Source: a virus (Duplodnaviria; Heunggongvirae; Uroviricota; Caudoviricetes). From it: a stretch of 18,724 nt of DNA. Below the pieces are notes generated by a model that ran no database searches, was not told the DNA's origin, and saw only the letters and a program-made list of their open reading frames with translations. The position numbers and the translations under genes are program-made. Positions 6,486-9,364 of the stretch are shown piece after piece. Location: positions 1-18,724 of the IMG/VR virus record IMGVR_UViG_2734482772_000011; one strand, 5' to 3'. Every line of letters begins with the position of its first letter. Within the stretch, counting starts at the first letter, position 1.

Positions 6486-7922
6486 TCAGAATCCTCCTTT
6501 CTTCTTGGACTGCGGTTCCTCGCGTTCACGTCGGCGCATTTCAGCAGACTGTTGGTCTGTGTCATAAATAGCGCCATTTGCCTGAATGCAATACACCGTG
6601 CCGGTATTGCCATGACGATTGAGACGAAGGATTAGTTCAGTTTCACCAGGTGGAACACTGTCATCAAAAGCGCCTTCACGATGGATCCCGACCCAATAAT
6701 CGCAATCCTGTTCAATCTGCCCTGTATCTCGTGAGTCACTTGGTAATGGGCGTTTATTGGTTCTGCTTTCCAGTGCGCGGTTAAGCTGCGTCAGAAGCAC
6801 AACAACGCAATCAAGCTCTTTGGCAAGGTTCTTCAGTCCTTTGGTGATCATGCCGTAAGCAAGGTCGTTGCGATCGGCCTTCTCAGCGGTCATTAGTGTC
6901 AGGTAATCGACCAGAATCATGCCAACACATCCTTTTTCTCGCTTGATTCGACGGCTTTCGCTGACGATTTGAGCCAGAGATAATCCCGGCGTGTCGTCGA
7001 TGTAAAGCAGGTCTATTTCACTCAAGCGATTGGCTGTTTCTATCGCCCTGTTGAAGTCACCATCGTAATCACCCTGATAGCCGTCATCGGCGTCATTTGT
7101 CGCCGGAAGGTAAAAAATATTCGGGTTAACACCAGACTTCTGCCCTACCAGTTTTTCCAGTATCTGATCACCTGGCATTTCAAGGCTGAACATCAATGCG
7201 GGCTTTTTCTCATGCACTGCGCAATTGATTGCCATCTGGCTGTATAGCGTCGTTTTCCCCATCTTAGGGCGAGCGCCAATGACAAACAGAGAGCCTTTCA
7301 CCAGACCTTTCGGTGACAGCATCCTGTCCAGCGATGGGATCCCTGTGCTCATTCCCCGTTGTTCGCCTGACGGGTCAAATCGCTTCTCAAGGTCGCTAAC
7401 CCAGTCTTCCATGACCTCACCAAATGAGCGAAGGCCGCGACGCGATCCGGTTTTTGCATGGTCTGTCAGTTGCGTGAAAATCGACTGAATAGCTTCGTAC
7501 TTCTGCGTTGCAGTCATTCCGTTGCGGGAATAGAGCAATTCCGTCGCTTCAGTCATGCGGTTGATGGCGTAGCGTTCCATTGCGGTTTCGCGAACCTGCA
7601 TTGCATAAGCAACGATGTTTGCTGCGCTTGGCGTGTTCTTTGCGATCTCAGCGATATAAGCAAAACCGCCAACAGACGCCGTTAACGATTTACGCTCCAG
7701 TTCATCGAAAAGCGTCAGGCCATCTACTGGCTTTTGCTCACGGTGCATTCTGGTTATTTCTTCGAAAATGATTTTGTGTGGCCGGCTGTAAAATGAATCA
7801 GGCTTCAGCATCGCCAGAACCTTCTGGACGCGCTCACTGCTGTCATCATCCAGAAGCAATCCACCAATCACCGCCTGCTCTGCCTCGATGCTATGGGGCG
7901 GCGCATAAAAATTATCGGTCAT
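6486..7922 (-). CDS. replicative DNA helicase (DnaB family, P22 gene 12 type)
   Basis: Track ORF; Walker A GARPKMGKT, DnaB-like N-terminal segment SIEAEQAVIGGLLLD; ATG at 7922-7920 with SD GAGGGTG preferred over track GTG at 7937. Confidence 0.9.
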   Translation of the reverse strand: MTDNFYAPPHSIEAEQAVIGGLLLDDDSSERVQKVLAMLKPDSFYSRPHKIIFEEITRMHREQKPVDGLTLFDELERKSLTASVGGFAYIAEIAKNTPSAANIVAYAMQVRETAMERYAINRMTEATELLYSRNGMTATQKYEAIQSIFTQLTDHAKTGSRRGLRSFGEVMEDWVSDLEKRFDPSGEQRGMSTGIPSLDRMLSPKGLVKGSLFVIGARPKMGKTTLYSQMAINCAVHEKKPALMFSLEMPGDQILEKLVGQKSGVNPNIFYLPATNDADDGYQGDYDGDFNRAIETANRLSEIDLLYIDDTPGLSLAQIVSESRRIKREKGCVGMILVDYLTLMTAEKADRNDLAYGMITKGLKNLAKELDCVVVLLTQLNRALESRTNKRPLPSDSRDTGQIEQDCDYWVGIHREGAFDDSVPPGETELILRLNRHGNTGTVYCIQANGAIYDTDQQSAEMRRREREEPQSKKKGGF

Positions 7923-8811
7923 CGTGTTCACCCTCACGAACTTTCAGGTAGGTATTATCGTTAAGCAGGAAATCAAATCCCTTTTTGTGCCAGACAGTTC
8001 CGCGTTGATGGTTTGGACGCTCTTCGAACATCCATCGGCAATTTTCGCCTACGTAGCTCAAATAATTTCTCCAGTCCTGCATCGTGAACCCATGCCCGTC
8101 AAGCTGGCGGGTTATCACTCCGGCTTTGCGCCAGAACGTTCGGATCTGGTTTTTACGCTTGTCATTCAGTGCGCGGATTCTTGGAGCTTCAGGAAGGATT
8201 TCGTGGTAAGCATCGACAACATCCTGACAGCTGACGGAAGGTTTTTTCTTGTCAGACTTTTTGTCTGCTGTGGCACTCTCTAATACGTCAGTATTAGAGA
8301 TAATATTATTATATTCTTTATCTGTGGTAATTTGCTGGTAATCTGCTGGTACAGCATTGCTTACAGGCATTGGTATTGCTGGCTTTGAGGTGGTAATTTG
8401 CTGGTAATCTGCTGGTACAAAATTTGACTGATAATCGTCATATTTCTCTACTGAGAAAACTGAGAATTTACCGTGTGAAACCCAGTCAATCATGCCGAGT
8501 TTTTTGAACTTTCTAAGCAGGTACTGAACGCGATCTGGTTTGAGTCCTGTTTCAAACGCCAGAGAGTTTCTACCGCCAAGTAGCTTCCCTCTGCCTACCA
8601 GAATTTCTCCTGCGTCAGTCATTACATACTCAGGCGTATGCTTTGCTTTGAGGATTAAGTGAACCCACAGATGCGCTGCTTCTGCATCCTTGTAAAACGG
8701 CACATCCATAATTTTACGGTGCAGCAAGGCATACCCCTTACCGCTGCTTTGATGCGGTTGTTGTAGCCTTCTGGCCTCTCTGGCTTCGGCTAGATTAGAT
8801 ATGTTACTCAT
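7912..8811 (-). CDS. replication initiation protein (O-like)
   Basis: Track ORF 299 aa directly upstream of the helicase, downstream of cII; contains tandem peptide repeat [10 protein letters not shown] encoded by the iteron array, as in lambda O. Confidence 0.75.
8324..8419. repeat. origin-like iteron array inside the O-like gene, flanked by an AT-rich tract (8281-8320)
   Basis: Exact 30-bp direct repeat GTGGTAATTTGCTGGTAATCTGCTGGTACA at 8324-8353 and 8390-8419; each holds two TGCTGGTA sub-repeats 11 bp apart. Confidence 0.6.
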
Positions 8812-8950
8812 GACCTTTCTCCTTCTGCATCAGCTTCACTTTTTCCAACTCAGCCCGGAATCGACCAGGCTGCTTGAAGCTGGACAGGAAGCGATCACGT
8901 AGTATGTGTTTGTGAATTTTGTCCTGGTAAGGACTGAGTTGTTTTGTCAT
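8804..8950 (-). CDS. small hypothetical protein (48 aa) between cII and O
   Basis: Hand-translated, not in track: [48 protein letters not shown]; SD AGGAG 5 nt upstream of ATG 8950-8948; stop overlaps O start. Confidence 0.4.
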
Positions 8951-8982
8951 AATTACTCCTGTGGATTGATCCAGTAATTCCC

Positions 8983-9279
8983 TCAGAATTGCATATCAAT
9001 TTGCTTAGAGTCCCCGGCGGCCACCGGGGATTTTTTCTTTGTGATTCCATCAAGCGCATACTTAAAAGCCCTACTAATCGGACTGATGTCTGATGCCATT
9101 CCGAAAGCACACAAGACTGAAGCAATAAATCTCCAGTCCGTTCTGCTTATCTTCGATTCATGACAGCCAATCATCTTTGCCAGACCGCGCTGAGTAAGCG
9201 TTGACAGGTTGATAAGTAAATCTGTTTCTGCGCGATCAACGTCGCGCTGTGATAGTTTGCTGTAACTTGTTCGTTCCAT
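8983..9279 (-). CDS. cII: CII-like transcriptional activator
   Basis: Track ORF 98 aa; HTH region and C-terminus [18 protein letters not shown] resembling lambda CII (KKRPAATERSEQIQMEF) by recall; position between cro and O. Confidence 0.75.
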
Positions 9280-9364
9280 TTCTTAAGATTTCCAATAGTG
9301 AATAGCTAGTTGAAAGGTATGCGTGGAAACGCATATGGCCTTAGTTGGTCAAATATCTTGGAAC

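Follow-up and report, generated by a model that had tools for sequence, protein, structure and literature searches.

An array of short direct repeats within a phage initiator gene was identified in the window, i.e., the whole stretch of 18,724 nucleotides analyzed in this study, which comes from a mosaic lambdoid prophage and represents its early region. As judged from sequence comparison, the array very likely represents the theta-replication origin of a prophage of the HK022/VT2-Sakai type, located in the DNA that encodes the interdomain linker of its own initiator. Several lines of evidence support this assignment, including prior annotation of related phages, a geometry that was conserved while the repeat sequence turned over, coupling of the repeats to the N-terminal domain of the initiator, an order of elements shared with the origins of lambda and P22, the protein model and the adjacent helicase gene.

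The repeats themselves are already known: a GenBank record from around 1999 labels them as origin iterons, and a description of phage L from 2020 covers the 11-bp repeats of the family. In this record, that of VT2-Sakai (AP000422), 'ori iteron 1' and 'ori iteron 2' are entered as misc_binding features with 'O protein' as the binding partner, and they map exactly to window positions 8390-8419 and 8324-8353. The homologous stretch is marked rep_origin in Sf6 (AF547987, gene 43), and the equivalent stretch of phage L (MW013502, gene 18) is a rep_origin feature described as 'putative origin of replication'. Zaworski et al. (PMC8022706) reported six imprecise 11-bp repeats in gene 18 of phage L, probably the origin, and the module was named Eru3 in Stx phages by Llarena et al. 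(PMC8044961). Database origin labels for the HK022/Sf6/L-type family are 'putative' or unsupported annotations, and literature searches revealed no experiment showing origin activity or binding by the initiator in this family.

An exact 30-bp direct repeat (GTGGTAATTTGCTGGTAATCTGCTGGTACA, plus strand) was present in the middle of the initiator gene at 8324-8353 and 8390-8419, as had been noted in the first-pass annotation. By arithmetic (N^2/2 x 4^-30), ~1.5e-10 exact repeats of this length are expected by chance in 18.7 kb. Two sub-repeats 11 bp apart, also recognized at that stage, were found in each 30-bp unit (TGCTGGTA at 8333-8340 and 8344-8351, and likewise in the second unit). In addition, we detected a degenerate third 11-bp unit that had been overlooked, CTGTGGTA at 8322-8329, in which TGGTA is retained. 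Exact copies of the sense-strand 11-mer TACCAGCARAT occurred at the four repeat positions only in the whole window.

On the minus (sense) strand, the array is organized as two triplets of tandem 11-mers. Triplet 1 (8385-8417) is composed of TACCAGCAGAT (8407-8417), TACCAGCAAAT (8396-8406) and TACCACCTCAA (8385-8395), with CCA cores at an 11-bp period, a layout common to 30 of 32 relatives. Triplet 2 (8319-8351), whose start is exactly 66 bp from that of triplet 1, is composed of TACCAGCAGAT (8341-8351), TACCAGCAAAT (8330-8340) and TACCACAGATA (8319-8329). The third unit of each triplet begins TACCAC, and that of triplet 2 extends into the AT-rich tract described below. The two triplets are separated by a 33-bp spacer (8352-8384, minus strand), the fastest-evolving part of the element. 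While the 30-bp repeat had been taken as the iteron, the binding unit is most likely an asymmetric 11-bp repeat present six times (2 x 3), in agreement with the description of phage L.

Several other signals were considered in this region. In the window type, the spacer carries an in-phase CCA-containing unit, AGCCAGCAATA (8374-8384, minus strand), as a fourth unit after triplet 1, and Klebsiella-type origins have a similar unit at this place; AGCCAGCAATA could be a weak seventh site. No convincing DnaA box or GATC cluster was seen by eye in 8270-8430. The plus-strand unit GCTGGTAA was compared with Chi (GCTGGTGG) and agreed at 6 of 8 positions; this candidate was rejected as a coincidence because relatives with other 11-mers have the same architecture.

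The gene is transcribed from right to left in the window, and the AT-rich tract reported earlier to follow the repeats in this direction was indeed located 3′ of them. GC content of 8280-8319 was 0.20, and the tract proper comprises 24 nt at 8301-8324 (minus strand; sense sequence CAGATAAAGAATATAATAATATTA, GC 0.12) and is presumed to be the unwinding element. It is followed by a perfect palindrome at 8277-8300, TCTCTAATAC-TGAC-GTATTAGAGA, with 10-bp arms and a 4-nt loop. Its folding energy as single-stranded DNA was -10.1 kcal/mol (z = -5.35). The palindrome is unmentioned in the origin annotations of Sakai, Sf6 and phage L, to the extent that these were readable.

The initiator gene (7912-8811, minus strand; 299 aa) was assigned to the HK022 O / 'Eru3A' type based on its open reading frame and translation, identity to HK022 O and a match of the protein to PHROG 345 ('replication initiation O-like', E 1e-87). 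Nucleotide identity of the gene was 98.9% with O of HK022 and 98.7% with O of VT2-Sakai, an Stx2 phage, and the protein was 65-66% identical in amino acid sequence to those of phage L and Sf6. PHROG 'DnaD-like helicase loader' profiles matched over residues 25-194. Weak matches to Pfam Phage_rep_org_N were observed in 6 of 25 family members (best E 0.05), all Pfam matches being below the curated threshold, and neither PDB chains (sequence and profile searches) nor NCBIfam gave a match for the initiator. Similarity to lambda O was not detected by Pfam (no Phage_rep_O match), BLASTP (E 4.8) or hhalign (probability 0.1%). Thus, the earlier proposal of a lambda-like origin in an O-like gene is supported with regard to the origin, for which layout, comparative evidence and prior annotation all speak, whereas the gene is 'O-like' by position and role only. 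By analogy, the element would function like ori-lambda, yet it is placed outside the lambda O/ori-lambda family in the strict sense.

An AlphaFold2 model of the initiator was of modest quality (mean pLDDT 61, pTM 0.38) due to a very shallow alignment, as a large protein database yielded almost only near-identical E. coli proteins. It contained an N-terminal winged-helix-like domain (~aa 36-123), a linker predicted to be disordered (aa 124-191, pLDDT below 35) and a confidently modelled C-terminal helical domain (aa 192-296). The linker is the part encoded by the origin DNA. Foldseek fold matches were weak (E ~1e-2), and all were winged-helix DNA-binding proteins.

Immediately downstream, and overlapping the end of the initiator gene, is a gene for a DnaB-like replicative helicase of the HK022 P / P22 gp12 type (6486-7937, minus strand; Pfam DnaB E 6e-32, DnaB_C E 3e-60). 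The helicase was 31% identical to P22 gp12 over 468 residues (E 2e-59). We also observed a small orf48-type ORF (8804-8950, minus strand) upstream of the initiator gene, the final 8 nt of which overlap the initiator start. Several phage records in RefSeq (NC_019708, NC_071003 and P22 NC_002371) call the product of this ORF a 'tail protein', which, given its position in the early operon, looks like an annotation error that has spread. Further upstream, a candidate locus for an oop-type antisense RNA was noted at 8943-9041 on the plus strand. A 33-bp block reported to be conserved at the oop promoter and 5′ end (Hayes, PMC3349717) is present at ~8943-8975, and a G+C-rich hairpin (TCCCCGGCGG/CCACCGGGGA) followed by TTTTTTCTTT is located at 9011-9041, where it overlaps the 3′ end of a cII-like gene (8983-9279, minus strand). 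Rfam gave no match for this locus or elsewhere in 7800-9300.

To describe variation in the element, relatives were gathered from annotated phages, GTDB genomes and IMG/VR, and 32 diverged members were aligned. The geometry was kept in 30 of these 32 while the sequence of the 11-mer differed among lineages: TACCAGCA in the window type, TGTCCAACG in L/Sf6, TGTCCAGCC in the CobraSix type and GTGCCAACA in Klebsiella and Yersinia types. Triplet starts were 66 bp apart in 29 of the 30 relatives with this geometry; in the one exception (L031), 77 bp was scored because of an extra in-phase CCA before the first triplet. The AT tract of the relatives was 21-27 bp long with a GC content of 0.05-0.21, and their palindromes had 9-10-bp arms and a 4-nt loop. 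Within types, identity was 0.89-1.00 for iterons versus 0.62-0.77 for the spacer. Among 47 close relatives, variable sites were found at 4 of 60 positions in the triplets, 8 of 36 in the spacer and 0 of 24 in the palindrome.

These patterns bear on the possibility that the array reflects no more than tandem duplication of a linker peptide of 22 residues, which would be under selection, or tolerated, as protein and would have no role as DNA. The repeat is in frame and, as the first reading of the sequence had stated, encodes a duplicated peptide (10 residues, occurring twice in the translation); its location in the predicted disordered linker and the natural expansion and contraction of the 66-bp unit in frame (277, 299, 321 and 343 aa) would also fit such a duplication. 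However, copies of the 11-mer fall into three different reading frames (GTA CCA GCA GAT TAC CAG CAA ATT ACC), so its repetition has no explanation at the protein level. In addition, the 32 relatives all retain CCA cores with an exact period of 11 bp though the peptide differs, the spacer peptide evolves freely, and the AT tract and covarying palindrome lack a protein-level rationale. We therefore regard a purely peptide-level duplication as extremely improbable, and an origin remains the preferred reading of the array.

Natural variants of the initiator differed in frame by whole 66-bp units. Proteins with one unit have 277 aa (L094, L095), those with two have 299 aa, those with three have 321 aa and those with four have 343 aa. 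Three-unit forms (L090, L091, P0002-P0027 and P0121) included numerous E. coli proteins and, as an independent case, one from Citrobacter; the four-unit form was P0001. Duplicated spacers were identical to each other within one protein. This pattern suggests that the number of units changed by repeated and recent unequal exchange between the 30-bp repeats in several independent lineages.

Several records in this dataset deserve comment. Enterobacterial-type initiators were found in a 799-kb contig of Chryseobacterium sp. 18061 (L014), with Sf6-type iterons and a palindrome as in the window, and in a 501-bp contig of Catenulispora yoronensis (L036). These copies, assigned to a member of Bacteroidota and an actinomycete, respectively, are likely the result of assembly contamination or misassignment. 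In Salmonella phage ST-29 (L006; CP051288, 301-1200), deposited as 'complete', the initiator gene is frameshifted around the origin region, reflecting either errors made when the repeats were sequenced or a prophage that is defective. The replication module also occurred in phage-sized records filed as plasmids, including NZ_CP044141.1 (H143, 50 kb, E. coli), CP026278.1 (H146, 48.6 kb, K. oxytoca) and LR134256.1 (H145, 21 kb, K. aerogenes), which may be excised or replicating prophage circles in the assemblies. Plasmid records were considered as natural proof of replicon function and rejected, as they were mostly phage-sized (21-50 kb) or very large replicons, and are probably excised or integrated prophages.

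The palindrome showed a distinct mode of evolution. Covariation was scored over columns 176-202 of a MAFFT alignment of the 32 relatives (alignment A2). Palindrome pairs were formed in 97.2% of cells, compared with 65.3% in shuffles, and none of 500 shuffles reached the observed value; pairing fell to 30-50% when the partner was slid by one to three columns. Compensatory (two-sided) changes were observed in 9 of 10 pairs, none of the pairs had changed on one side only, and U-G occurred in just one of 320 cells, although the compensatory changes represent few independent events and many of them are A-T to T-A flips without a wobble intermediate. Across lineages, 11 arm alleles were identified, every one of which was self-complementary. 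Such strictly Watson-Crick covariation is more in keeping with a dyad acting as DNA than with a helix in RNA. On these grounds, the covarying palindrome appears to be part of the origin element, following the AT tract, and compensatory evolution of an origin-flanking palindrome may be the sole new detail of this analysis.

These observations are also relevant to a second alternative, namely that the region is not an origin and provides some different signal at the DNA or RNA level, either an autoregulatory operator array or an antisense terminator formed by the palindrome and a T/A-rich run on the plus strand. A simple scan did flag 8277-8300 plus TAATATTATT as terminator-like on the plus strand, the phage L record has software-predicted minus-strand 'terminator' features at the same spot, and plasmid iteron arrays often autoregulate too. 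However, the stem is AT-rich (3 G-C among 10 pairs) and its tail does not qualify as a U run, promoter-like sites were absent from 7900-9000, and the covariation noted above favors DNA over RNA. The repeats are also far from the operon promoter, and the same arrangement is shared by the lambda and P22 origins. Taken together, a signal of this kind is very unlikely to account for the array, and we retain its assignment as an origin.

Initiators of the lambda family are modular, with origin specificity provided by the N-terminal domain and helicase handling by the C-terminal domain. In the current dataset, the type of 11-mer was predicted by identity of the N-domain (AUC 0.92), an association confounded by shared ancestry and physical linkage, and not by identity of the C-domain (AUC 0.59). 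For example, the window and Sf6 have C-domains that are 100% identical, N-domains that are 50% identical and different 11-mers. Conversely, a Pantoea prophage (L017) shares the 11-mer of the window, with 76% identity in the N-domain and 44% in the C-domain. The palindrome allele tracked the C-terminal half (AUC 0.84) somewhat better than the N-terminal half (0.74), with exceptions; as it follows neither half cleanly, the palindrome does not look tailored to either protein domain.

Independent assortment of the N- and C-domains, with the break in the linker, raises the question of whether the element is a recombination joint between modules (the N-domain plus iterons, and the C-domain plus helicase), conserved for promoting mosaic exchange among lambdoid phages. 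The contrast between the identical C-halves and divergent N-halves of the window and Sf6 is in line with this idea, as is the near identity of the AT tract and palindrome in phages that differ elsewhere. On the other hand, the palindrome allele itself varies among lineages, and a joint would leave the 11-bp phasing, fixed 66-bp spacing and compensation within the palindrome unexplained; moreover, exchange at this site is a consequence of, rather than an alternative to, an origin. A joint as the primary explanation is thus highly improbable.

A per-residue scan of mutual information between the N-domain and iteron bases revealed many correlated positions, all confounded by ancestry, and only one lead was kept. 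In 25 of 25 aligned proteins, the residues at 96-97, which are part of a helix predicted at 92-104, go together with particular bases at the two positions 5′ of CCA: QY occurs with TA, KY with TG, and [KR]S (KA in L037) with GT or AT. These residues might be a determinant of 11-mer recognition; the correlation is subject to the same ancestry effect and is presented as a lead only.

Comparison with known origins placed the element in a clear context. HK022 and VT2-Sakai showed no essential difference from the window: their gene belongs to the same family and is 98.7-98.9% identical in nucleotides, and the Sakai record has the same two 30-bp units. The HK022/Sakai/Sf6/L ('Eru3') members and the window share two 11-mer triplets 66 bp apart, the AT tract, the palindrome and an adjacent DnaB-like helicase gene, whereas Sf6 and L differ from the window in the 11-mer (TGTCCAACG) and in the N-domain (50-54% identical).

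The first-pass annotation had also pointed to the ori regions of lambda and P22 for comparison, and both were found to have the same order of elements, i.e., iterons, A-rich tract and palindrome. In lambda, the origin is likewise in the interdomain region of the initiator gene, and these elements, read directly from the sequence, follow one another in the order of transcription: four annotated 18-bp iterons (39034-39118), a ~40-bp A-rich tract, and then GTCAGAGAATTC-TGGC-GAATCCTCTGAC. There are also clear differences. The four lambda iterons are ~18-19 bp long, have internal dyad symmetry and pair as inverted repeats, whereas the window has six asymmetric tandem 11-bp units (2 x 3), and the AT tract is ~40 bp in lambda versus 24 bp in the window. 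In addition, lambda captures host DnaB with a P-type loader, while the window phage has its own DnaB-like helicase gene instead.

P22 resembles the window in that its origin is located within gene 18 and combines repeats with an A-rich tract and a short palindrome of G/C type, and in that the partner is a phage DnaB-like helicase. Direct reading of gene 18 revealed four dyad-symmetric ~20-22-bp repeats and an A-rich tract, followed by CCCCC-TAAA-GGGGG. The C-domain of P22 gp18 is weakly related to that of the window initiator (residues 159-294 vs gp18 144-269, 25% identity, E 1e-4), whereas its N-domain belongs to the lambda O type (43% identical to lambda O itself) and has no match to the N-domain of the window.

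A further parallel is provided by oriL of Bacillus phage SPP1, in which sites for the replisome organiser G38P lie within its own gene beside an AT-rich region, and the phage encodes a DnaB-type helicase. The window is similar in that the putative initiator sites are in the initiator's own gene near an AT-rich region and the phage has its own DnaB-type helicase; the sub-threshold Phage_rep_org_N matches and the PHROG 'DnaD-like helicase loader' matches given above also belong to this resemblance. SPP1 requires a separate loader, G39P, a counterpart of which was not seen between the initiator and helicase genes of the window.

Based on these data, a mechanism for initiation can be proposed. The N-domain of the initiator would bind the six asymmetric 11-bp sites, which follow one another head to tail at one per helical turn and form two triplets with a distance of 66 bp between their starts. 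The nucleoprotein complex that results may destabilize the adjoining 24-bp AT tract, as an analogy with lambda O and ori-lambda suggests. The C-domain would then recruit the phage's own DnaB-like helicase without a lambda-P-type loader, as suggested by gene content and by the weak similarity to the P22 gp18 C-domain. Transcription of the rightward (pR-type) operon crosses the element, as in lambda. The role of the palindrome is the least certain part of this scheme: it might act as DNA, probably as a hairpin or cruciform once the region melts. A stronger version, in which the palindrome is a required structural part of the origin that fixes the open complex or gives an entry site for the helicase, is possible but somewhat doubtful.

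The replication module described here is very common in E. coli prophages, with identical or near-identical initiators found in hundreds of contigs, and the same module drives the Stx2 phage of the Sakai outbreak strain. Identification of the origin in itself adds nothing new; however, the family offers natural material for origin tests, as the N-domain and 11-mer are swapped between members whose C-domains are identical, the number of repeat units ranges from one to four, and the palindrome occurs in eleven alleles that compensate. Defense systems such as Lamassu and OLD have been reported to sense structures at phage origins (PMC12663957; bioRxiv 10.64898/2026.07.10.737580). If the palindrome does prove to be a required structural part, the origin hairpin could be such a structure, and this initiator family would constitute a natural mutational series for testing the function of origin-flanking palindromes.
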